IMG/VR virus record: IMGVR_UViG_3300010970_000074
Length of the DNA: 30,543 bases
Source: a virus
Reading direction: 5' to 3' (one strand)
Of this stretch, positions 148 to 30,543 are shown piece after piece (within the stretch, counting starts at the first letter, position 1; each line of letters opens with the position of its first letter). The notes beneath the pieces are model-generated. The model was not told the origin of the DNA, searched no databases, and saw nothing but the letters and a program-made list of their open reading frames with translations. The position numbers and the translations under genes were made by a program.

Positions 148-209
148 TTGTATATTTGTAGTGGATGTGAGATATCCAATATTTAAACTTATTAGGCTTG
201 ATAATGATG
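1..209. repeat. Direct terminal repeat / assembly overlap, left copy (identical to 30335..30543)
   Basis: Base-by-base reading: gagtttatgtcttacaaatgg...attaggcttgataatgatg is present at both window ends, 209/209 identical. Confidence 0.95.
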
Positions 210-250
210 TATAATCTCACTATACTGATTTTGATAGCCTTTTTTATTTT
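151..250 (+). promoter_or_regulatory. Element E1: TATATTTG promoter box plus ~90-nt structured leader ending in a T-run, paralogous to 25380..25478
   Basis: TATATTTG 151..158. GGATGTGAGATATCC 163..177. Outer pairing AGGCT 194..198 / AGCCT 236..240. Inner hairpin GTATA-ATCTCAC-TATAC 209..225. T-run 240..245, then ATG at 251. Confidence 0.5.
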
Positions 251-721
251 ATGTTACCAATAAAAGGATTTGAAAACTATCTAATTACAAAAGATGGATT
301 TGTAGTTAATAAAAAAACAAATAGGATTTTAAAGATGTCATTGCAAACAACAGGATATAATCAAGTTTGTTTGTCCAAAAAAGGAGTTTCTAAAGCATTT
401 ACAGTACATAGATTAGTAGCTGAAAATCATATTAAAAACCCAAATAATTACCCTTGCGTAAATCACATTAATGGAGTAAAAACTGATAATATGATTGAGA
501 ATCTTGAATGGATAACCTATTCGGATAATCATAAACACGCTTTTAAATTAGGATTAAAAAAGCCACCAATGTACGCTTGTAAAAGGGTGTTGAATACTGA
601 AAATGGTATTATATATAATTCAGCAACCGAAGTCGCAAAATTAATTGGAATGAAAAAGCAAGATTTGTTTAATAGATTAAATGGAGGTGCGTTAAACCAA
701 ACTTGTTATGTTTATCTATAA
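251..721 (+). CDS. HNH homing endonuclease (NUMOD4-like N-terminus, HNH core, C-terminal NUMOD1/IENR1-like DNA-binding module), paralog 1
   Basis: N-terminus GFENYLITKDGFVVN. HNH core HRLVAENH...VNHINGVKTDNMIENLEWITYSDNHKHAF. C-terminus GIIYNSATEVAKLIGMKKQDLFNRL. Confidence 0.85.
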   Translation: MLPIKGFENYLITKDGFVVNKKTNRILKMSLQTTGYNQVCLSKKGVSKAFTVHRLVAENHIKNPNNYPCVNHINGVKTDNMIENLEWITYSDNHKHAFKLGLKKPPMYACKRVLNTENGIIYNSATEVAKLIGMKKQDLFNRLNGGALNQTCYVYL

Positions 722-3791: not shown

Positions 3792-4880
3792 ATGGAAAAC
3801 GTAATTAACGAAATGGCTGATAACCTTAAAGGTTTTCAAGCTAGCATTGAAGCAAAGTTGGAAGCAACAAACGCTGAAATCCGTGTAGTAAAAGATGAAG
3901 CACAAAAACAATTTGATGCTCAAGCTGCTACACAAAAGAAAAACGCATCTAAACAAGTAAAGTTTATGGATGAGGCTATCATTGAGAAATTAGATGGTAG
4001 ATTAGATGAAATGGAAAAATCAATGAAATCAAATGGTAAATTCCGTTTAGATTTAAGCGATGTTAAATCAATGACTTTGTCAGCTTCTTTAACAGGAGAT
4101 GCTCAAGCATCTTATGCTCCTAACGCTGCTGTATTACCAAGTCAAGCAATTAACTTCCGTGATTTAGTTCCAACAGTTCGTAGCGAAAGTGGTTTGTATG
4201 TATTCTACAAAGAAACTTCTACTACTAACAACATTGCTGCTCAAACTGAAGGTTCAAACAAAGGTGAGAATAGCTACGCATTAAGCGAGGTTAAAGTGGT
4301 TAACGATTACATCGCAGGTTTCTCTACATTCTCAAAACAAATGGCTAGAAGTTTGCCTTTTTTAAGCACAACTTTACCAAGAATGTTGACTAGAGATTTC
4401 TTCAAAGCTGAAAACGCTGCTTTCTTTGCAACTGTATCAGGTGCTGCAACAGGTTCTACTACAACTGCTGAAACTGATGATTTGAAGCAATTAGTTGACT
4501 ATATTGGTAACCAAAAAACTGCAAACTTTGTAGCTTCAGTTGCTTTGGTATCTCCTGCTCAATTAGGTCGTTTATTGAAAGAAACAATCACTGCTGGTTA
4601 CTACGCTGGTAATGGTTCAGTTATCGTTTCACCAAATGGTGGCATCACAATATGGGGAGTACCTGTAATTGCTGCATCTTGGGTTACTGATGACAAGGTT
4701 TTAATTATGGATAACAACTATTGTGAGCGTGTTGAAGTTGAAGGATTAGCTATTGAGTTCTCTTATGAGAACGCATCTAACTTCCAACAAAATATGGTTA
4801 CTGCGAGAATTGAGTGTTATGAAGACATCAACTTAATGCAACCAACTTCAGCAATCTATGCTGATTTAGGAAACATCTAG
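3792..4880 (+). CDS. Major capsid protein, HK97 fold, with N-terminal delta-like coiled-coil region
   Basis: 362 aa. The N-terminal ~100 aa are charged and coiled-coil-like. The C-terminal part has IWGVPVIAASWVTDDKVLIMD, typical of HK97-family capsids. A strong terminator follows. Confidence 0.85.
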   Translation: MENVINEMADNLKGFQASIEAKLEATNAEIRVVKDEAQKQFDAQAATQKKNASKQVKFMDEAIIEKLDGRLDEMEKSMKSNGKFRLDLSDVKSMTLSASLTGDAQASYAPNAAVLPSQAINFRDLVPTVRSESGLYVFYKETSTTNNIAAQTEGSNKGENSYALSEVKVVNDYIAGFSTFSKQMARSLPFLSTTLPRMLTRDFFKAENAAFFATVSGAATGSTTTAETDDLKQLVDYIGNQKTANFVASVALVSPAQLGRLLKETITAGYYAGNGSVIVSPNGGITIWGVPVIAASWVTDDKVLIMDNNYCERVEVEGLAIEFSYENASNFQQNMVTARIECYEDINLMQPTSAIYADLGNI

Positions 4881-4897: not shown

Positions 4898-4929
4898 AAA
4901 AGACCCCATCTTAATCGGTGGGGTTTTTT
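4898..4929 (+). terminator. Rho-independent terminator after the capsid gene
   Basis: ACCCCA 4903..4908 pairs with TGGGGT 4919..4924. The stem can be extended inward (C4910-G4917), an A-run precedes it and a T-run 4924..4929 follows. Confidence 0.8.
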
Positions 4930-4942
4930 ATTATATTTATTG

Positions 4943-4950
4943 TAAATTTG
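4943..4950 (+). promoter_or_regulatory. Candidate -7 promoter box TAAATTTG
   Basis: TAnnTTTG match 12 nt upstream of the ATG at 4963, right after the capsid terminator. Confidence 0.5.
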
Positions 4951-5496: not shown

Positions 5497-5834
5497 GATT
5501 AGGAAGCAAGAAATCAAACTATGTAGATGCGAATACAATGTACTCGGAAATAGGCTTATATGTGCCTACAATCACCGCTGATGGGCAAGGTGGCTACACA
5601 ACTACCTATGCCTTACAAGAGGTTGTATTTGGCGATTTTAGACCACAAGATGAGAATAGAGCATTACTAGAGGCACAATTGAGTTTTACTCGTTCTGCTA
5701 AATTATTTATCAGGTACGATGTAACAATTAACAATATGTACAAAATAGAGGCTGAAGGGGAAATGTACACAATTCATTCAATTAAGGATGTAGAGAATCA
5801 GTTTAGATTTTACGAAATATTAATGTACGCATAA
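5493..5834 (+). CDS. Head closure / head-tail joining protein
   Basis: ~113 aa, with an ATGA overlap onto the upstream stop (ATG 5493, TGA 5494..5496). Size and position fit SPP1 gp16-like proteins. The track start at 5451 lies inside the upstream gene. Confidence 0.55.
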   Translation: MRLGSKKSNYVDANTMYSEIGLYVPTITADGQGGYTTTYALQEVVFGDFRPQDENRALLEAQLSFTRSAKLFIRYDVTINNMYKIEAEGEMYTIHSIKDVENQFRFYEILMYA

Positions 5835-6361
5835 TGGCAGGTTTTGCAGTAAGTTTAGGTGGTATGAAGGAACTTGAAGGCAAGTTAAATAAATTATCTA
5901 CTGCATTAAAAGTAGATGTAAGTGATGAAATAAACGCATCTGCACTAAATATAGAAAATCAAGCTAAAAGATTAGCACCTGTAAACTTTGGTCAATTAAG
6001 GAACTCAATAGCACTTACAAAGGATGGCGAGTTGACATATTCGGTTGCAGCTAACGCTTCGTATTCTGCTTATGTTGAATTTGGCACAGGACCACAAGTA
6101 AATGTACCTGCTGATTTCAAATCTTATGCCCAGCAATTCAAAGGTAAAAGCGGAGGCAAGTTTAAGGATATGGTTGAAGCATTAACTTTGTGGGTAAAGC
6201 GTAAAGGAATTGGTAATGGTAAAAATGATAAAGGTTTGGCTTATGTAATAGCTTTAAGCATATTAAGAAAAGGTATGCGACCACAACCATTTCTAGTTCC
6301 AGCTTACGAAGCAGAAAAACCTAAACTTATACAAAGACTAAATAAATTATTAAATGCTTAA
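5834..6361 (+). CDS. HK97 gp10-family neck / tail-completion protein
   Basis: AKRLAPVNFGQLRNSIAL matches the gp10-family motif (P-x-x-x-G-x-L-r-x-S-i). It has a TAATG overlap with the upstream gene. Confidence 0.65.
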   Translation: MAGFAVSLGGMKELEGKLNKLSTALKVDVSDEINASALNIENQAKRLAPVNFGQLRNSIALTKDGELTYSVAANASYSAYVEFGTGPQVNVPADFKSYAQQFKGKSGGKFKDMVEALTLWVKRKGIGNGKNDKGLAYVIALSILRKGMRPQPFLVPAYEAEKPKLIQRLNKLLNA

Positions 6362-9596: not shown

Positions 9597-11577
9597 TTTA
9601 AAATACCAAATAACTGCTGCAACCAAAAACAATGAAGTTGCGGTTGTTGAAATGTATATTGATGAAGTAGTTGCTGCGGTGGTTGAATATCCTGCAACTG
9701 CAATTCAGTTACAATACATCCCAAGAAGTGATGATATTTATGAACCTATCTATGCAAGTCAGTTAAATGTCAGTATTGATGTAACTGATGATGATGATAA
9801 TATGCCTGACTTTACAACTTTAAACGATAGGAAATATTTAGTTAAGTTATTTATAGATGGAAGTATTTATTGGCAAGGTTGGGTTTTAAGTGATTTGGTT
9901 CAATACTCATTTACCACAGGCAGAAAAGAATTATCTTTTAATGCTATTGATGGACTTGGAATGTTAGATTACATTCCTTTTACATTTACCGAAACTAATG
10001 TAGTTGGTAACACTAAATTAAGTCCGCAATCGGTTCTTTATTTTTTATATTCTTGTTTAGCTAAAATAGGATTCCCAACAGGATTAAATCTTATTACTGC
10101 TTGTTCTTATTACGCAGCAGGAATGTCAAATAGGGGTGATGGTAGCCAATACGAACCATTTAATCAAAGCTATTTAAGACCTGTTTACTTTCAAAATGAT
10201 GATGAAACATATATACCTTGTTTAGAAGTATTATCACAAATATTAAAGTCATTTGGTTGTAAATTGTATCAGTCCAATGGCAAATGGTATATTGTAGCGG
10301 TTAATGAATTTGCTGCTGCTCCATATTTTGCTTACACATATTTTACGGAATATACACCAAATGGAACATTGGTTACATCAGGTACATTCAATACATTAAG
10401 CGAAATTCAACCATACACAGGAAATACAAGCGGTTTATACTTTACTAATAATAGCCAAATGAAGCTATTTAAAAAAGGTTATAACAATTTTAATTATAGA
10501 TACGATATTAGTTACTCACCTAACTATATTTCAAATCCAAACCTAAAGAGTTTAACAAGTGGATTTCCTACATTATGGCAAACATTTAATCAAGGTTCAG
10601 GCGGAAGCGTTACAATAGTTAGCAAACCTTATGAGGCTAGTGATTGGTTTAATATTACATTAGGAACATCAACAGGTGTTACAGGATTAACGGAGGTTCA
10701 CACAAACCCTGTTGGATATGTAACCGAAAATGACACTTTAACATATACTCAAACATTTTTTGAACAAAGTATTGATAAGGTAAGAGGACAAATACAATTA
10801 CAAATAACAGGTATCGGCGGTGGTGCAGCAATTTATTATTTAAATGTTGATAGCGTTTGGCAAGATGCTTCCGTTGCACCTTTTGATAATTATTATGAAG
10901 TACCTTTAGTAGAAGAAGATAAAATAAATAAGGTATCAATAACAACACCACCAATTCCTATAAATGGCACTTTAGCAATAACTTATATGCTAACTCAAGA
11001 TATAGTGAATTGTGCTACTAATGTAAAGATTGGTTCATTTGGATTGACCTTTACTTCTCCTTTATCATTAATTACATCTACATCAATAGTTGATGCTAAT
11101 AATCAATATCAATTAGAAATGGATTTGCCATTGGGTTATCCTATTTATGATGGCGATGGGGTTAATAGAACACAAGCAAATATGGCTTATGGAACTATTC
11201 AACAATTAGTATCAGGTAACTTTGTATCGGCAACAGGATGGTATCGTTACGGACCTTACACAACCCCTACCGATGGTTTAAGCCAAACTATAATGAAAGA
11301 ATACATAAACAATTATAGAAGGAACTTAATAAATGTGGATTGTAACCTATTTGGAATAACAACAACTAATGGTAATTTTGCTGCTAATAAGTTATTGCAG
11401 ATATTAGATACCGACCCAGCACAAATAAACATTGAAGGAAATAGATATATGACAGGGAATATGACTATTGACATAGTAGGGTGTGAAACTCAAGCTACTT
11501 TATTAGACATTTCAAATGAGGAGATAAGTAGCACAATAGAAACAATATTCACAGTAAACGGAGTACCTTTTAATTAA
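9586..11577 (+). CDS. Tail tip / baseplate structural protein (function not recognised)
   Basis: 663 aa. The GTG start overlaps the tape measure stop by 11 nt. Position after the tape measure suggests a distal tail or hub protein. Confidence 0.5.
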   Translation: MAYNLKYQITAATKNNEVAVVEMYIDEVVAAVVEYPATAIQLQYIPRSDDIYEPIYASQLNVSIDVTDDDDNMPDFTTLNDRKYLVKLFIDGSIYWQGWVLSDLVQYSFTTGRKELSFNAIDGLGMLDYIPFTFTETNVVGNTKLSPQSVLYFLYSCLAKIGFPTGLNLITACSYYAAGMSNRGDGSQYEPFNQSYLRPVYFQNDDETYIPCLEVLSQILKSFGCKLYQSNGKWYIVAVNEFAAAPYFAYTYFTEYTPNGTLVTSGTFNTLSEIQPYTGNTSGLYFTNNSQMKLFKKGYNNFNYRYDISYSPNYISNPNLKSLTSGFPTLWQTFNQGSGGSVTIVSKPYEASDWFNITLGTSTGVTGLTEVHTNPVGYVTENDTLTYTQTFFEQSIDKVRGQIQLQITGIGGGAAIYYLNVDSVWQDASVAPFDNYYEVPLVEEDKINKVSITTPPIPINGTLAITYMLTQDIVNCATNVKIGSFGLTFTSPLSLITSTSIVDANNQYQLEMDLPLGYPIYDGDGVNRTQANMAYGTIQQLVSGNFVSATGWYRYGPYTTPTDGLSQTIMKEYINNYRRNLINVDCNLFGITTTNGNFAANKLLQILDTDPAQINIEGNRYMTGNMTIDIVGCETQATLLDISNEEISSTIETIFTVNGVPFN

Positions 11578-20747: not shown

Positions 20748-21218
20748 TTATTTTGCCCTGTTTTGATATTTATATCCCATAGCTGATAATGCTTTATGAA
20801 TAGCACCAATAGTTATATTCCCTTGAGCATCTCTTTTTTCCATATCCAAAACACCTTGTTTTGTAATGCCCATTGCTTCGCCTAGTTCTTCCATACTCAT
20901 TTTTTTCTCTAATCTGCATTGTTTAATAAGCCCTATTGGAGTAAAAGCATCTTTGCCAAATCCATATTTCCATAATAAATCATCGCTTAAACCTTCAACA
21001 AATATTTGTAATTCGGTATTGTATTCAAACCATTCCCCACTACTACTAGCAGGTTTAAACATTTTATGATAATTTCTTTCATCTTCCCTATTGCCTTCAA
21101 TTAAACCAAGTACTTCTAATTTAACAGGGCAACTTACTTGTAATGTGCTTAATCTTAATTTAATTCTATCGGTATAACCAATTTTAACATAATCGGTATG
21201 CTTTATAAAATATATCAT
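20748..21218 (-). CDS. T5orf172 (GIY-YIG-like) domain fused to an XRE-family HTH; candidate phage repressor/regulator
   Basis: N-terminus MIYFIKHTDYVKIGYTDRIKLRLSTLQ...EDERNYHKMF...GEWFEY. C-terminus LIKQCRLEKKMSMEELGEAMGITKQGVLDMEKR. It is the only minus-strand gene. ATG at 21218 is preferred over the TTG at 21236. Confidence 0.75.
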   Translation of the reverse strand: MIYFIKHTDYVKIGYTDRIKLRLSTLQVSCPVKLEVLGLIEGNREDERNYHKMFKPASSSGEWFEYNTELQIFVEGLSDDLLWKYGFGKDAFTPIGLIKQCRLEKKMSMEELGEAMGITKQGVLDMEKRDAQGNITIGAIHKALSAMGYKYQNRAK

Positions 21219-21219
21219 A

Positions 21220-21257
21220 ACTTTACTTTTTAGCAAATATAAGGAAAAAAGTAAAGT
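21220..21257. promoter_or_regulatory. Perfect 12-bp inverted repeat (ACTTTACTTTTT / AAAAAGTAAAGT) flanking the regulator's -7 box
   Basis: Arms are at 21220..21231 and 21246..21257. On the minus strand the 14-nt spacer contains TATATTTG. Confidence 0.6.
21234..21241 (-). promoter_or_regulatory. Candidate -7 promoter box TATATTTG for the minus-strand regulator
   Basis: The reverse complement of caaatata is TATATTTG, 15 nt upstream of the ATG at 21218. Confidence 0.5.
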
Positions 21258-21284
21258 AATAGCTTTGGGTTTGTAAATAAATGG

Positions 21285-21295
21285 GTTTACATATT
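21285..21295 (-). promoter_or_regulatory. Inverted copy of the 11-mer AATATGTAAAC
   Basis: GTTTACATATT on the + strand is the exact reverse complement of the repeats at 16766 and 16789. Confidence 0.45.
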
Positions 21296-21320
21296 TATAT
21301 AAATCGGTAACAATACTACC

Positions 21321-21345
21321 TAAAGTTCTCTAATAGCAAACTTTA
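21321..21345. promoter_or_regulatory. Operator-like palindrome TAAAGTT-N11-AACTTTA
   Basis: 7-bp perfect arms at 21321..21327 and 21339..21345. Confidence 0.5.
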
Positions 21346-21354
21346 TCAATCACA

Positions 21355-21378
21355 AAAGTTACCCAATAAGGCAACTTT
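21355..21378. promoter_or_regulatory. Operator-like palindrome AAAGTT-N12-AACTTT
   Basis: 6-bp perfect arms at 21355..21360 and 21373..21378, using the same half-site as the neighbouring palindrome. Confidence 0.45.
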
Positions 21379-21406
21379 GAGCCGTATTTGAGCGATAATC
21401 GGCTCA
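21378..21406. repeat. 29-bp GC-rich hairpin element, copy B (TGAGCCG-N15-CGGCTCA)
   Basis: A perfect 7-bp stem with a 15-nt loop. Its reverse complement matches copy A at about 22 of 29 positions. Confidence 0.55.
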
Positions 21407-21463
21407 TTTATGACCTATAAAAAGAAATTTAAATAATTTTTTGGTAGTATTGTAATTGTTTTA

Positions 21464-21471
21464 TATCTTTG
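21464..21471 (+). promoter_or_regulatory. Candidate early promoter: -7 box TATCTTTG with an upstream TTTG (21440..21443)
   Basis: TAnnTTTG match with a TTTG about 21 nt upstream. It overlaps the inverted repeat CTTTGTT-AA-AACAAAG (21467..21482). Confidence 0.5.
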
Positions 21472-21516
21472 TTAAAACAAAGGGAGAGGCACTCCATATA
21501 AACTGCACCATTAGTT

Positions 21517-24392: not shown

Positions 24393-24887
24393 ATGGCAAT
24401 TATTGAAGAATTCCCAAATTATTCTATTGACATAAAAGGCAATGTTTATAATACTAAAAATAATAAATATTGCCACTTTAATAAAGACAATTATGGATAT
24501 ATATTAGTCAATTTGAGAAAAGAAAATATTTGGTATAAAAGAAAAGTTCATAGATTGTTGGCACTTTCATATTTACCAAACCCTGAAAATAAATGTGATG
24601 TAAATCATATAGATGGCAATAAGTCTAATAATGATTTATCAAATTTAGAATGGGCAACTAGAAGCGAAAATATGAAACACGCATATAGAATTGGATTAAG
24701 TTTTATTAGTAATAAAAATATAGAACAATTAAAAAAAAGAAGTAGTAAAAAAGTATTAGATACTAAAACTAAAATAATTTATGAAAGTGCAACATTTGCT
24801 GCAATGAAATTAGGTATTAATAAAAATACTTTAAAAGGTTATTTAGTAGGAAATTATAAAAATAAAACAACATTAATTTACGTTTAA
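24393..24887 (+). CDS. HNH homing endonuclease, paralog 3
   Basis: EEFPNYSIDIKGNVYN, then VHRLLALSYL...VNHIDGNKSNNDLSNLEWATRSENMKHAY, then IIYESATFAAMKLGINKNTLKGYL. Confidence 0.85.
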   Translation: MAIIEEFPNYSIDIKGNVYNTKNNKYCHFNKDNYGYILVNLRKENIWYKRKVHRLLALSYLPNPENKCDVNHIDGNKSNNDLSNLEWATRSENMKHAYRIGLSFISNKNIEQLKKRSSKKVLDTKTKIIYESATFAAMKLGINKNTLKGYLVGNYKNKTTLIYV

Positions 24888-25182: not shown

Positions 25183-25377
25183 ATGAGCCAAAACAAACAA
25201 ATTGCAGACTACCTAAATAAGGGTAAAAAGCTAACTCCAATTGATGCCTTAAACAAATTCGGTTGCTTTAGATTAGCAGCACGAATAGCTGATTTAAGGA
25301 ACGAAGGAATGAATATTGTAACTAGAACAATCAAGCTGGAGAATAAGAAGCAGATTGCCCAATATTCGGTTAAATAG
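25183..25377 (+). CDS. Small winged-helix/HTH DNA-binding protein (HTH_39-like)
   Basis: LTPIDALNKFGCFRLAARIADLRNEGMNIVT matches the L-T-P-x-x-A-L...G-x-x-R-L-A-A-R-I-x-x-L-R pattern. Confidence 0.6.
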   Translation: MSQNKQIADYLNKGKKLTPIDALNKFGCFRLAARIADLRNEGMNIVTRTIKLENKKQIAQYSVK

Positions 25378-25379
25378 CT

Positions 25380-25478
25380 TATATTTGCACAGGATGTAGG
25401 ATATCCGTTTATTAACTTATTGGCTCAAAGCTGAAACCCTAATCCTACTAGGGTGGATGCCGAGAGCCTTTTTTTATT
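25380..25478 (+). promoter_or_regulatory. Element E2: TATATTTG promoter box plus ~90-nt structured leader ending in a T-run, paralogous to 151..250
   Basis: TATATTTG 25380..25387. GGATGTAGGATATCC 25392..25406. Outer pairing GGCTC 25422..25426 / GAGCC 25464..25468. Inner hairpin CCCTA-ATCCTAC-TAGGG 25437..25453. T-run 25469..25475, then ATG at 25479. Confidence 0.5.
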
Positions 25479-26168
25479 ATGGCTAAAGACCCAGCAGTGC
25501 TTTTTTACACAAGTGATTTCTTGAGTGGCACATTTACAATGACTAACGAACAGGTTGGTAAATATATTAGATTATTGTGCTTACAACATCAAAAAGGCAA
25601 ATTAACTGAAAAGGATATGTTAAGCATATGCTCTGCATATGATGTTGACATTTGGGATAAATTTAAAATTGAAAATGGTGTATTTATTAACGAAAGGATG
25701 TACAATGAGGCAGTTAGAAGGCAAAAGTTTAGTGAATCAAGGAGAAATAACGCTAAATCACCTAAAAATGATAGCACTAGCAAAGCATATGCAAAGCATA
25801 TGGAAACTGAAACTGAAACTATAAATGAAACTATAACTATAAATAAAACTAAAGCTAAAGTAAAGGTTTTACCCATCCTTTTTAGGGATAGTATTTATAA
25901 TGATATTGAAGTTTTTAGTTCAGCTTTCATTGGAACTCAATATGAATTTGCTAACTTTAATTTTTACTACGAAAAGGTTAAGAATTGGTCGGATTCTAAA
26001 AACAATAAAAAAATAGATTGGATAGCAACTGCTAAAAATTGGATGGCAGATGATATGGCAAATAATAAATTCATAGATATAAACTTTAACCCAAATGCAA
26101 AACGAATTAATCAAGATAGAAAACTCACTTACGCTGAACAACAAGCCGCAATTAGAAATAGCTACTAA
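25479..26168 (+). CDS. DUF1376 (YdaU-like) replication-module protein
   Basis: DPAVLFYTSDFLSGTFTMTNEQVGKYIRLLCLQHQKGKL is the DUF1376 N-terminal signature. Confidence 0.7.
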   Translation: MAKDPAVLFYTSDFLSGTFTMTNEQVGKYIRLLCLQHQKGKLTEKDMLSICSAYDVDIWDKFKIENGVFINERMYNEAVRRQKFSESRRNNAKSPKNDSTSKAYAKHMETETETINETITINKTKAKVKVLPILFRDSIYNDIEVFSSAFIGTQYEFANFNFYYEKVKNWSDSKNNKKIDWIATAKNWMADDMANNKFIDINFNPNAKRINQDRKLTYAEQQAAIRNSY

Positions 26169-26805
26169 ATTAACCGATAAATACGAGGTTAAAATATACG
26201 AGGCAATTAATTCAATGAGTATCAGTAAATGCTCAAAAATAGAAGTAAAAGAAGTACTTAAAACCTGTTTACAATTAAGCGGAACACAATCCCCAGCAAT
26301 GGGTGATTTTGACTTTATTGTAGATTTTGTACTTGATAACTACGGAATATTTAAACTAAAGGAATTAAAAACCGCCTTTGAAATGTTAGCAGCAGATAAA
26401 CTATCAGTTGAAAAACATATCATTTTTAACCCCAAGTTAATCGGTGAGGTAATGTCAGCCTATAAAAAGATAGCAGTACAGGTAAGGCAAAAAACACAAA
26501 TAAACGAAATAAAAGAAACACCAATGCAGATAAATGAAGAACAAGCCATAAAAGATGAAATGGAATGGTGGGATAAATCGGAGCAAAAGAATTGGAAGTT
26601 CTTAAACCATCAAGTATTTGACTATATGTGGAAACGAGGTCAAATTAAAATATCAAAGGAACAAGGCGAAACAATAAAAGCAAAAGTAATGGCGGTATTT
26701 TTAGCTGATTCTAAACGACCACAGGATATGTTAATAGATGAGGACACTATGCGACAACAATGTAAAAAATATTCATTAATGATGCACTTTAATAACCAAT
26801 TATAA
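26095..26805 (+). CDS. Hypothetical replication-module protein (start uncertain)
   Basis: The 236-aa ORF from ATG 26095 overlaps the upstream gene by 74 nt. The in-frame ATG at 26215 is an alternative start. Confidence 0.5.
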   Translation: MQNELIKIENSLTLNNKPQLEIATKLTDKYEVKIYEAINSMSISKCSKIEVKEVLKTCLQLSGTQSPAMGDFDFIVDFVLDNYGIFKLKELKTAFEMLAADKLSVEKHIIFNPKLIGEVMSAYKKIAVQVRQKTQINEIKETPMQINEEQAIKDEMEWWDKSEQKNWKFLNHQVFDYMWKRGQIKISKEQGETIKAKVMAVFLADSKRPQDMLIDEDTMRQQCKKYSLMMHFNNQL

Positions 26806-26817
26806 AACAAATAACCT

Positions 26818-27033
26818 ATGAAAACAGCAATGCAAGAATTAATTGAATGGCATAGAAAATCAATGCGTTCATATTCTGAAACAAATAAAATGATTGAGTC
26901 ATTACTTGAAAAAGAAAAAGAACAGCATAAAGAAACTTGGTTTAGGTCAACTGCTCAATTTGATAATTCAGCAGAAATAACTTATAAAAAGCTATTTGAA
27001 GAACACTACAACGAAACTTACAACCAAAATTAA
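26818..27033 (+). CDS. Hypothetical protein
   Basis: 71-aa ORF preceded by the conserved junction motif AACAAATAACCTATGAAA. Confidence 0.5.
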   Translation: MKTAMQELIEWHRKSMRSYSETNKMIESLLEKEKEQHKETWFRSTAQFDNSAEITYKKLFEEHYNETYNQN

Positions 27034-27039
27034 TAACCT

Positions 27040-27285
27040 ATGAAACTATATACAGAGGAACAAGTAATAACTTTTGCAATTAAAGTATTATCAGATTATG
27101 AAATCAATGGTACTTTTTACAATAGAGAAAAACTTAAAGAAACATTAGATGTAACCCCAATAAAACTACCAAGTGATGAGGAGATGGCTAATGCTTCTAA
27201 TCATTGCAAAGATGGTCAAGTGAAAATAGGATTTTTAAGAGGAGTTTTATGGCTAAAAGAACAAATACTTAAACAAAACAAATAA
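27040..27285 (+). CDS. Hypothetical protein
   Basis: 81-aa ORF. No motif recognised. Confidence 0.5.
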   Translation: MKLYTEEQVITFAIKVLSDYEINGTFYNREKLKETLDVTPIKLPSDEEMANASNHCKDGQVKIGFLRGVLWLKEQILKQNK

Positions 27286-27288
27286 CAT

Positions 27289-27534
27289 ATGAAAACATTA
27301 TTAATTGGACTATTATTATTTTTATTATTATCCTGCGAAACAAAACCCAAAAAATATAAATATCAAATAGGAAGTGTAATTCTATTAAAGCAAGATTCTA
27401 TATTAGCTGTTGTATTAGCACAAGATGCTTATTTAGAGGGATACGATTATCAAGTAAGTTATAGAACAAAAGATGGCAAAATTGAATATATGGGTTTAGA
27501 TGAGCAAGCAATATTAATGTTAAAAAACAAATAA
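27289..27534 (+). CDS. Putative lipoprotein
   Basis: MKTLLIGLLLFLLLSCETKPKK has a signal peptide and a lipobox-like LLSC. Confidence 0.55.
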   Translation: MKTLLIGLLLFLLLSCETKPKKYKYQIGSVILLKQDSILAVVLAQDAYLEGYDYQVSYRTKDGKIEYMGLDEQAILMLKNK

Positions 27535-28995: not shown

Positions 28996-29343
28996 ATGCC
29001 GAATCCCGAAAACTTAAAACCATTCCCTAAAGGAGTATCAGGAAACCCAGCAGGGAAACCTAAAGGAGTTGAACATAGCAAAACAAGACTATTGCGATTA
29101 CTTCAATTAGTAACTAAAGTGCGTAACCCTGTTACAGGCGAAGATGAGGAATTTACAATAGCCGAGCAACTAGATATGAAGATAATTGCAAAGGCAATGA
29201 AATCCGATTTAAAGGCTTATCAGGAAATACTTGATAGATTAGAAGGCAGAGCAAAACAAACAACCGACATAAACGCAAACATTCAAGGTAGCGTTCAAAT
29301 AGTAATACAAGAAGATGACCGATGTAAACCAATTGAAGATTAA
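28996..29343 (+). CDS. terS: Putative terminase small subunit
   Basis: 115 aa, directly upstream of and overlapping terL. The N-terminus NLKPFPKGVSGNPAGKPKG is common in small terminase-like (DUF5681-type) proteins. Confidence 0.5.
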   Translation: MPNPENLKPFPKGVSGNPAGKPKGVEHSKTRLLRLLQLVTKVRNPVTGEDEEFTIAEQLDMKIIAKAMKSDLKAYQEILDRLEGRAKQTTDINANIQGSVQIVIQEDDRCKPIED

Positions 29344-30481
29344 TGCCACACCTGTATTCTTTGCCAACAAAAAAGCATACGAAAGCACTTATCCTGTCAT
29401 TTGTAATGAAGGTGGCACAAGAAGTTCAAAGAGTTATTCCATTGTTCAGTTATTAATTGAAATAGCCTACAACAATCCAAAGACAAGGATTTCAATAGTA
29501 TCTCATTCCCTTCCCCATATTAAGCGTGGTGTTTATAGGGATTTTAAAAGCATAATGGAGAATTGGGGTTTATGGTCGGACAATGACTTTAGTTTTTCCG
29601 ATTTTATTTACACTTATCCCAATGGGTCTTACATTGAACTATTTGGATTAGAAGATGAAAGCAAGGCTAGAGGACCAGCAAGGGATATTCTATTCATTAA
29701 CGAAGCCAACTTAATCAAAAGAACTTTATACGACCAATTACTAATGCGAACCACAGGTAAGGTATTTCTAGATTGGAATCCTGCCGACTTTGTTAATTGG
29801 GTTTATGAAATAGCTGATAATCCTGAAAACAAACGCATTCATTCTACCTACCTAAACAATATCCCAAACCTATCGGAATCACAAATAAAAAACATTGAGC
29901 AATATCAAAACCTACCTGATGACTTTATGTGGAAGGTTTACGGATTAGGGCAAAGAGGTGCAGCAAAAGAATTAATCTACACCCAATGGAAACTTTACGA
30001 TACATCACCCGAAGGAGATGTATTCTATGGTCTTGACTTTGGTTATGTGCATCCAGCTGCACTTATAAAGGTTACACATCACGAAGGCGAAAACTACTTT
30101 GAGGAAATCATTTATCAAAGTGGACTTACACTATCCGACCTTACAAGATTAATAAAAGAGAAAGTACCTGAACGAGCAACCATCTACGCAGATGCAGCAG
30201 AACCAAAATCAATAGAAGAACTTTACCGACAAGGATTTAATATTAAACCTGCTCAAAAGGATGTATGGGCAGGAATTGTTAAAATGAAATCTTATCCTAT
30301 AAACATTCACTATCATAGCCAAAACCTACGCAGAGAGTTTATGTCTTACAAATGGAAAAAGGATAAAAACGATAATGTAATTGAAGAACCTGTCAAAGCA
30401 AATGATGATGCTTTAGATGCTTCAAGGTATGCAGTATTTACGCATTTAACCAAACCTAAATTTTCAGTATCGGTGTTTTAA
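29315..30481 (+). CDS. terL: Terminase large subunit (PBSX/Terminase_3-like)
   Basis: Walker A GGTRSSKS. Walker B-like ILFINEAN. Nuclease acidic residues in GLDFGY, ADAAEP and NDDALDASRYA. Confidence 0.9.
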   Translation: MTDVNQLKINATPVFFANKKAYESTYPVICNEGGTRSSKSYSIVQLLIEIAYNNPKTRISIVSHSLPHIKRGVYRDFKSIMENWGLWSDNDFSFSDFIYTYPNGSYIELFGLEDESKARGPARDILFINEANLIKRTLYDQLLMRTTGKVFLDWNPADFVNWVYEIADNPENKRIHSTYLNNIPNLSESQIKNIEQYQNLPDDFMWKVYGLGQRGAAKELIYTQWKLYDTSPEGDVFYGLDFGYVHPAALIKVTHHEGENYFEEIIYQSGLTLSDLTRLIKEKVPERATIYADAAEPKSIEELYRQGFNIKPAQKDVWAGIVKMKSYPINIHYHSQNLRREFMSYKWKKDKNDNVIEEPVKANDDALDASRYAVFTHLTKPKFSVSVF

Positions 30482-30543
30482 TTGTATATTTGTAGTGGAT
30501 GTGAGATATCCAATATTTAAACTTATTAGGCTTGATAATGATG
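30335..30543. repeat. Direct terminal repeat / assembly overlap, right copy (identical to 1..209)
   Basis: Same 209-nt string as 1..209. It covers the terL 3' end, its stop codon and the first 59 nt of element E1. Confidence 0.95.

Follow-up and report, generated by a model that had tools for sequence, protein, structure and literature searches.

A phage leader RNA family in which a 5' hairpin loop is complementary to the loop of a terminator-type hairpin

Phages P4, P1/P7 and N15 encode immunity RNAs in their leaders (CI RNA with seqA/seqB/seqC, c4 and CA, respectively; C4 in Rfam, RF01695), which RNase P excises from the transcript and whose pairing targets are single-stranded; the hosts are enterobacterial. 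Antisense control of plasmid copy number is known from ColE1 (RNA I/RNA II with Rop), R1 (CopA/CopT), the attenuation systems of pT181 and pIP501 and the repZ pseudoknot of IncI-alpha. The put RNAs of phage HK022 (putL and putR), which are not known to have loop-loop pairing or a built-in terminator, head the two early operons, and in the pRNA of phi29, a phage with protein-primed replication, four paired loop bases connect loops of different molecules into a ring on the portal. We know of no described mechanism in which a terminator loop is tied to a 5' hairpin, and to our knowledge gene regulation is almost uncharted in the phages of Bacteroidota, hosts with unusual promoters and without Shine-Dalgarno-based translation initiation. 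T4-type PeSL cassettes, composed of a terminator-type stem-loop followed by an early promoter, are reported to act as DNA recombination substrates (PMC2839356, PMC4122927). Here we analyze two paralogous elements, E1 and E2, of the virus record IMGVR_UViG_3300010970_000074, whose full stretch of 30,543 nucleotides (nt) is referred to below as the window, and which an initial annotation had taken to mark two operon starts.

The defining feature of the element, absent from the initial annotation, is the exact complementarity between the loops of two hairpins. The loop of the 5' hairpin P1 of E1 (GUGAGAU, 167-173) matches the apical loop of the downstream hairpin P3 (AUCUCAC, 214-220), and the corresponding loops of E2 are GUAGGAU (25396-25402) and AUCCUAC (25442-25448). 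Among the roughly 100 elements that we collected from IMG/VR phage contigs, comprising 53 distinct sequences, the P1 loop is the exact 7-nt Watson-Crick complement of the P3 loop in 53/53, and this with nine different loop pairs (Table 1).

To what extent the remaining structure is conserved can be seen in an alignment of 44 sequences, in which 97.3% of the pair cells hold standard pairs and 18 of the 24 pairs have changed on both sides. None of 500 shuffles reached the observed values, and sliding the 3' partners left only 36-48% of the cells paired. The kissing helix is 100% paired in these 44 sequences with covariation at five of its seven pairs, although it lies outside the covariance model behind the alignment. 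Covariation is also present at three of the four pairs of the P1 stem and in all three E2-type helices P2, P2b and P3, including compensatory changes such as P2 GGGC/GCCC in loci L007/L106 and P3 GCGUA/UAUGC and GCAUA/UAUGC. The frequent occurrence of U-G pairs (13 and 14 cells) and G-U pairs (two cells in P3), with such wobble pairing in both P3 and P2, shows, moreover, that the folded molecule is the + strand RNA. Taken together, these results demonstrate a structured + strand RNA with a covarying 7-base-pair (bp) kissing helix. The loop complementarity ends exactly at the loop boundaries (loop duplex approximately -9 to -11 kcal/mol), and the kissing complex is therefore compatible with both hairpins rather than being a strand-exchange switch.

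These features bear on the reading of E1 and E2 as DNA-level elements (an operator palindrome, a replication origin or a recombination site), with the complementarities representing protein half-sites or cruciforms. The near-palindrome of P1 over the predicted transcription start, the position of E2 next to a replication initiator gene and the box sequences (TTG-TATWTTTG) on both sides of the endonuclease cassette described below would be in keeping with such a function, but the stems change sequence yet stay paired, their G-U pairs would be A-C mismatches on the other strand, and the nine loop pairs are always mutually complementary, where a protein site would keep its sequence rather than complementarity. 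We consequently regard a DNA-level element as extremely unlikely.

The family was assembled by pattern scans of IMG/VR, which gave 110 loci, about 100 of them with a true element, and by model searches that added more divergent copies. A lack of covarying homologues in related genomes had been set beforehand as refuting the element; homologues with covariation do exist, about 100 of them in other phage contigs. As the initial annotation had assumed, no known RNA family was recognized: Rfam 15 gave no match at gathering score and nothing meaningful at E <= 10 on E1 and E2 alone, the weak matches of E1 to small nucleolar RNA (snoRNA) models at E <= 10 arising from its UGAUG...CUGA internal loops. 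blastn of E1 and E2 against 50,697 cultured or deposited phage genomes returned no match, and tblastn of the replication proteins against cultured phages identified distant relatives only; the one Bacteroidota relative that we looked at, from Porphyromonas, shows a plain gap of 61 nt and not the kissing-loop leader design. A pattern scan of bacterial genomes, for which the pattern was too loose, produced 120 chance matches, none of them real. Overall, there is good support for the leader being an RNA family without a described counterpart, of a known general kind (cis leader/attenuator) and with an unusual conserved design.

Compared to the immunity RNAs of P4, P1 and N15, the resemblance is functional only. 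In both cases, a short RNA from the beginning of a phage transcription unit contains a segment complementary to other parts of its own leader, and different phages carry different, compensated pairing sequences, which define specificity in the immunity RNAs; their pairing controls premature termination before downstream genes, as we propose for E1 and E2. In contrast to these RNAs, the pairing segments are two hairpin loops of one unprocessed RNA and the hosts are Bacteroidota. The Rfam result also separates the element from the C4 family, no integrase was seen among the approximately 40 window proteins annotated by PHROG and Pfam, and an immunity role is not evident. Similar to plasmid copy control, fully complementary 7-nt hairpin loops kiss and the gene under control codes for a replication initiator; in plasmids this leads to premature termination or translational control, and changes in the loops create orthogonal (incompatibility) classes, to be compared with the loop classes found here. 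However, the antisense partner of the plasmids is encoded on the opposite strand, whereas the two leader loops are parts of one sense RNA, and an antisense promoter is not apparent. With the PeSL cassettes, the element shares being a short repeated regulatory cassette that flanks optional genes and moves with them between close phage genomes, but kissing loops or a covarying tertiary pairing are not known to have been described for PeSL (PMC2839356, PMC4122927). As in the phi29 pRNA, a phage-encoded RNA of about 100 nt contains two loops whose complementarity covaries between relatives. Covariation reads alike for intramolecular and intermolecular pairing, but a pRNA role is argued against by the genomic context, the element being located in a terminase-type phage, 5' to replication and HNH genes as their leader. 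E1 and E2 are thus not members of the immunity-RNA, plasmid-control, put or PeSL families, since no Rfam model matches, both partners are on one sense RNA and the pairing occurs between hairpin loops, one of which is the terminator's own.

Regarding the anatomy of the two copies, P1 is followed by a single-stranded linker and a long terminator-type hairpin (Table 1), whose outer stem P2 comprises 5 bp in both copies, P2b 2 bp in E2 and P3 5 bp in E1 and 6 bp in E2. E1 contains two symmetric UGAU/UGAU internal loops (199-208 with 226-235; U.U, G.A, A.G and U.U, twice), and E2 a UGAA/GGAU loop (25432-25435 with 25455-25458); tandem G.A pairs are abundant in the internal loops of the long hairpin. 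Being of the tandem sheared G.A type, the motifs are similar to protein-binding sites such as the C/D box or the k-turn. The E2 fold has an energy of -19.1 kcal/mol (z = -2.6). At the DNA level, P1 appears in both copies as GGATGT-NNN-ATATCC (163-177 and 25392-25406), a 15-nt pattern for which 0.35 chance matches are expected. Across the family, the linker measures 15-17 nt with AACUUAUU invariant at its end, and AACTTATT is located at 186-193 in E1 and 25414-25421 in E2. A start-stop pair within P1, AUG-UGA in E1 (165-170) and AUG-UAG in E2 (25394-25399), is probably incidental, because it is not conserved in the other loop classes.

These coordinates agree with the initial annotation for all sequence features listed there, among them the box, the GGATGT pattern, AACTTATT, the outer 5-bp stem with its T-run, the 7-nt inner loop and the distance to the start codon (ATG 251 and 25479, 92-93 nt past the end of the box). 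The box, placed there 3-4 nt after the upstream stop, actually follows it by 3 nt in E1 and 2 nt in E2, and the inner 5-bp hairpin ascribed to both copies holds for E1, the E2 stem being 6 bp long. The claim that the layout occurs nowhere else in this DNA was borne out, as a covariance model built from the family and run over every window position found only two sites (102 bits, E = 3e-20, and 74 bits, E = 5e-14), apart from an end duplicate representing a cut E1, which also scores; the next best match reached 11 bits (E = 1.4), and no third intact copy was found. The genome accordingly carries two copies, E1 at 151-250 and E2 at 25380-25478.

How far the architecture extends beyond recognizable sequence became apparent from 67 loci encoding relatives of the Lin1244_N/DUF4373 replication protein, which is found behind some of the leaders. 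A leader detectable by the model, with its end 5-7 nt before the ATG, is present at 23/67, and 34/67, falling into eight sequence groups, have no model match yet the same architecture; coding sequence takes the place of the leader at seven loci, and three are unclear. The 34 divergent leaders consist of a 5' hairpin, usually with a promoter-like box ahead, followed by a strong terminator hairpin, a U-run and the ATG, and 7-10 nt of the 5' loop can pair with the terminator, either in its apical loop or in a 3' bulge. Six divergent representatives fold in this way with energies of -23 to -42 kcal/mol (z = -3 to -6.5). One of the six, L322, deviates in that a stem of its minimum-energy fold takes up part of the 3' partner, and L343 and L336 use as partner a bulge that interrupts the long hairpin 3' of the inner one. 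Conservation of the linker AACUUAUU and of the internal loops is restricted to the main family, and the divergent leaders keep the architecture alone. On this comparison, the conserved core is the pairing of an upstream hairpin loop with the terminator loop and not a particular sequence, which speaks against a mechanism centred on a ligand pocket (riboswitch) or on a protein site recognized by its sequence. A riboswitch was considered and rejected, as the unpaired nucleotides are not conserved over all members.

The same comparison weighs on two further explanations. In the first, the element would be a processive antitermination RNA of the HK022 put type, a folded two-hairpin RNA that binds the polymerase and resists its own and downstream terminators. 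Similar to putL/putR, which act in cis, two paralogous promoter-proximal two-hairpin RNA elements are present in one phage genome, their strand and position fit, and antitermination would explain the expression of genes behind strong terminators. Nevertheless, E1 serves a single mobile gene instead of an operon, the loop-loop pairing and terminator-like hairpin have no known equivalent in the put RNAs, and only architecture is conserved across the leader groups, where a polymerase-binding surface would be expected to keep its sequence; we judge this function to be very unlikely. The second is a self-cleaving, pistol-like ribozyme, in which a hairpin loop forms a pseudoknot with a downstream segment and unpaired bases are conserved. 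The P1-loop pseudoknot topology with a conserved linker recalls this arrangement, as do the bulge partners of L343 and L336. No Rfam ribozyme model, pistol (RF02679) included, matches even at E <= 10, however, and the partner lies in the apical loop or 3' of the inner hairpin, whereas that of pistol, which has a conserved core with a G-U cleavage site, lies 5' of the inner hairpin. In addition, unpaired sequences are not kept across the leader groups and the predicted promoter would already fix the 5' end at P1, so that a ribozyme is hardly credible.

With respect to the promoter, transcription-start mapping in Flavobacterium psychrophilum places a TAnnTTTG-type box at -12 to -5 (PMC9723704). 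Applied to E1 and E2, this spacing predicts +1 at 163 and 25392, so that transcription would begin exactly where P1 does. Nearly all homologues have such a box 4-6 nt ahead of P1, despite differences in the flanking coding sequence; a sigma-70 consensus scan was uninformative, this being the wrong promoter type. The consensus-based position of the box provides the promoter-proximal structure that an attenuator leader requires, and the second requirement, a hairpin continued directly by a U-tract, is present in all copies, the U-run standing immediately 3' of P2. In all of the about 100 cases, an ATG opening a real gene is located 8-12 nt after the first base of the U-run, and the start codon lies 10-13 nt past P2. 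Given the strong terminators of the divergent leaders, the U-run is difficult to interpret as anything but a terminator tract, and canonical terminators with U-runs exist elsewhere in the genome, for example the strong one at 4898-4929 directly after the major capsid gene (3792-4880). We infer that the long hairpin and its U-run terminate most transcripts. The promoter and structured leader with a terminator-like end, as initially proposed, are supported by these findings.

An own promoter box and a terminator-like end are also what a stand-alone small RNA gene would have, the approximately 85-nt terminated RNA being the functional product, with a possible trans role (regulator, decoy or protein-binding RNA), and its proximity to a start codon reflecting genome compaction. 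The order of 5' hairpin, invariant single-stranded AACUUAUU and terminator is typical of such genes, and the tandem G.A internal loops look like protein-binding sites. On the other hand, AATAAGTT, to which the invariant linker is complementary, occurs in the phage genome no more often than by chance (three + strand sites), nor do the loops have further complementary sites there beyond chance, and the pairing is therefore self-contained. Moreover, the element always stands 10-13 nt ahead of the start codon of specific gene classes, even after gene replacement and in mobile cassettes, and the linker sequence is not kept in the divergent leaders of the same architecture. A small RNA gene is in our view an unlikely explanation.

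The start context of the leader-fed genes is atypical. Positions -15 to -1 before the ATG hold 10/15 and 9/15 T in these two genes only; the other 52 open reading frame (ORF) starts tabulated are A-rich or, in a handful, nearly balanced, with none near 9-10 T of 15. An A-rich region before the start codon is expected for Bacteroidota. These observations speak to a post-transcriptional element of the 5' untranslated region (UTR), which through its compact kissing fold would stabilize the mRNA 5' end or control the access of ribosomes to the U-rich start region, or could serve as an RNase III-type processing site, its U-run being no working terminator. Such a role would account for the constant distance between P2 and the AUG and for P1 being at the predicted extreme 5' end of the RNA, and Bacteroidota translation initiation is reported to be sensitive to structure near the start codon (PMC6847099). 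The U-rich context is, however, the opposite of the A-rich context of other genes in the phage, and the very strong canonical terminators of the divergent relatives, with their U7-U8 tracts, are hard to explain as translation elements. Accordingly, a 5' UTR element has a low probability in our assessment.

We hold with moderate confidence that E1 and E2 are cis-acting, promoter-proximal attenuator leaders with a fold dependent on the kissing loop. According to this model, a host sigma-A-type promoter (TAnnTTTG -7 box) would start the transcript at the first P1 base. About 80 nt further on, the RNA would close the P2-P2b-P3 hairpin, a covarying structure which together with the U-run has the layout of an intrinsic terminator and may act as one. 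The P1 loop would kiss the terminator apical loop over the 7 nt for which covariation demonstrates pairing, tethering the 5' end of the RNA to the terminator. Most transcripts would stop as an approximately 85-nt RNA, and only read-through would express the downstream gene with its U-rich start context, such that the attenuator or gate may limit or time the first replication gene (E2 class) and the HNH genes (E1 class).

Several points weigh against this model. Transcription start, termination and read-through are all inferred from sequence. By nearest-neighbour energy the E1 hairpin is weak (-9.1 kcal/mol, z = -1.8), a value to which the G.A internal loops contribute nothing as the energy model gives them no credit. 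A simple terminator scan lists neither the E1 nor the E2 site, the loops exceeding its size limit. Folding of truncated nascent RNAs revealed no conserved antiterminator competing with P2; the kissing helix, confined to the loops, is compatible with the terminator hairpin, and how it would change termination is not evident. A candidate regulator (antiterminator or RNA-binding protein) was not found among the approximately 40 PHROG- and Pfam-annotated proteins of the window. Lastly, genomes with two copies carry differing loop pairs in 5/5 contigs; this orthogonality, which we otherwise count in favour of the model, rests on five genomes and could reflect ancestry rather than selection.

A more speculative version of the attenuator model, which we consider rather improbable, is that the terminated leader of about 85 nt acts in trans through the same loops, as an RNA of the sense strand that governs copy number or incompatibility. 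Leader RNA would be made from every genome copy and would kiss the loops of nascent leaders in competition with their cis pairing. If so, read-through into the replication initiator or the HNH gene would depend on phage genome dosage, and the orthogonal loop pairs would be specificity classes that avoid cross-regulation between co-infecting phages and within a genome. This would amount to plasmid-style kissing-loop control of replication from a single sense RNA in a tailed phage. Irrespective of the mechanism, the family constitutes a widespread RNA module exactly at the entry to replication genes with unusually clean covariation, and its orthogonal loop classes offer natural matched and mismatched variants for experiments and synthetic biology.

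All classes except that of E1 precede the first gene of the replication module. Behind these replication-class leaders we found DUF1376-like and Lin1244_N/DUF4373-type proteins, two further unrelated replication-type proteins and, in L024, a protein of unknown family without a Pfam match. E2 was initially placed ahead of replication, recombination and packaging genes; it does head the replication module, but RecT is encoded upstream of it. The HTH_39 gene preceding E2 stops 2 nt before the box, and members of this family end directly ahead of the leader in most homologous loci.

Where the initial annotation had E1 opening the portal/head operon, leaders of the E1 class (GAG/CUC loops) are always found ahead of an HNH_3/NUMOD4 endonuclease gene, here followed by the portal gene. 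Among 80 loci with portal relatives of 77-99% identity, the E1 cassette is present in two and absent from 78. The junction in the HNH-less relatives consists of the terL stop, about 15 nt, a TAnnTTTG box, 16 nt and the portal ATG, which delimits the optional cassette of box, leader and HNH gene to approximately 148-714 (about 570 bp), between the terminase stop and the portal's own box. The mechanical portal ORF start (TTG 725) is probably wrong, the conserved box and start of the relatives indicating ATG 752. At locus L001, whose terL is 96% identical, the terminase abuts the portal, and an E1-class leader with its HNH gene is located at 5731-6350 (- strand), upstream of NinG; the promoter-like box there stands 16 nt before P1, not 4 nt. 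The optional presence (2/80) and the alternative site in L001 show that E1 is not the start of a structural operon, and that E1 plus HNH gene form a mobile, free-standing homing-type endonuclease cassette, of which E1 is the private leader. The N-termini of the E1-class HNH proteins are far more diverged than the leader itself.

A different arrangement was encountered at locus L109, where a small HNH gene (10537-10959, - strand) sits exactly between a CGC-class replication leader and the replication gene, its stop overlapping the ATG of the latter; in L015 this replication gene directly follows the leader. HNH genes thus have either a leader copy of their own (E1 class) or a place immediately after a leader of the replication class (L109), illustrating two ways in which mobile HNH genes gain expression signals. 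A homing nuclease would presumably benefit from expression together with the replication genes. The genome also encodes a second HNH_3-type endonuclease (24393-24887), a paralogue 38% identical to that at 251-721, which has no leader and lies 5 nt after the upstream ORF and about 500 nt before E2.

Table 1. Positions of the E1 and E2 parts, their neighbouring genes, and the further loop pairs of the family
Feature	Position	Strand	Remarks
E1 promoter-like -7 box TATATTTG	151-158	+	fits Bacteroidota sigma-A consensus TAnnTTTG; predicted +1 = 163
E1 hairpin P1	163-177	+	4-bp stem 163-166/174-177 (GGAU/AUCC); loop 167-173
E1 single-stranded linker	178-193	+	16 nt; invariant AACUUAUU at 186-193
E1 long terminator-type hairpin	194-240	+	P2 194-198/236-240; P3 209-213/221-225; apical loop 214-220
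E1 U-run (TTTTTATTTT)	241-250	+	from P2 to ATG 251; probable terminator U-tract
E2 promoter-like -7 box TATATTTG	25380-25387	+	TTG 22 nt upstream; predicted +1 = 25392
E2 hairpin P1	25392-25406	+	4-bp stem; 7-nt loop 25396-25402
E2 linker	25407-25421	+	15 nt; AACUUAUU at 25414-25421
E2 long terminator-type hairpin	25422-25468	+	P2 25422-25426/25464-25468; P2b 25430-25431/25459-25460; P3 25436-25441/25449-25454; apical loop 25442-25448
E2 U-run (TTTTTTTATT)	25469-25478	+	precedes ATG 25479
Free-standing HNH endonuclease gene (HNH_3 + NUMOD4)	251-721	+	PHROG and Pfam matches; fed by E1
Portal's own TATTTTTG box and start	box 728-735, ATG 752	+	junction in HNH-less relatives; not part of E1
HTH_39 winged-helix gene	25183-25377	+	64 amino acids; Pfam E = 1.8e-14; upstream neighbour of E2
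First replication-module gene	25479-26168	+	weak DUF1376/primosomal-like match; fed by E2
Large terminase gene (terL)	29315-30481	+	upstream of E1; stop ends at base 147 via overlap
Truncated E1 duplicate	30485-30543	+	product of assembly overlap, not a third copy
Loop pair (P1/P3)			GUCGCAU / AUGCGAC
Loop pair (P1/P3)			AUGCGAC / GUCGCAU
Loop pair (P1/P3)			GUCAGAU / AUCUGAC
Loop pair (P1/P3)			GUCGGAU / AUCCGAC
Loop pair (P1/P3)			GUCGUAU / AUACGAC
Loop pair (P1/P3)			GUUGCAG / CUGCAAC
Loop pair (P1/P3)			GUAAGAG / CUCUUAC

As for the genome itself, the window represents a circular phage genome of approximately 30,334 bp with a perfect 209-bp terminal direct repeat (1-209 = 30335-30543), corresponding to the overlap of a circular assembly or to terminal redundancy; it is this overlap of the window ends that identifies the partial element at 30485-30543 as a cut E1. 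The closest cultured relatives by portal protein are the Cellulophaga phages phi12:1, phi17:1 and phi18:1 and Flavobacterium phage 11b (about 30% identity), which makes the Flavobacteriia (Bacteroidota) the most likely host group.

Outside the two leaders, a TAAATTTG promoter-like box (4943-4950) follows the capsid terminator and precedes the next gene by 20 nt. On the minus strand, the one gene of any size (20748-21236) encodes a regulator-like protein with a C-terminal helix-turn-helix and is divergent from the rightward early genes, the 447-nt gap between them containing TAnnTTTG boxes at 21260 and 21464; this gene and the stretch 21260-21516 are probably the early control region. Finally, a 23-nt repeat, AAAACAAATAACCTATGAAAACA, occurs at 26804-26826, 27026-27048 and 27275-27297, each time covering the start of one of three small ORFs in a row (26818, 27040 and 27289), which are probably tandem paralogues.

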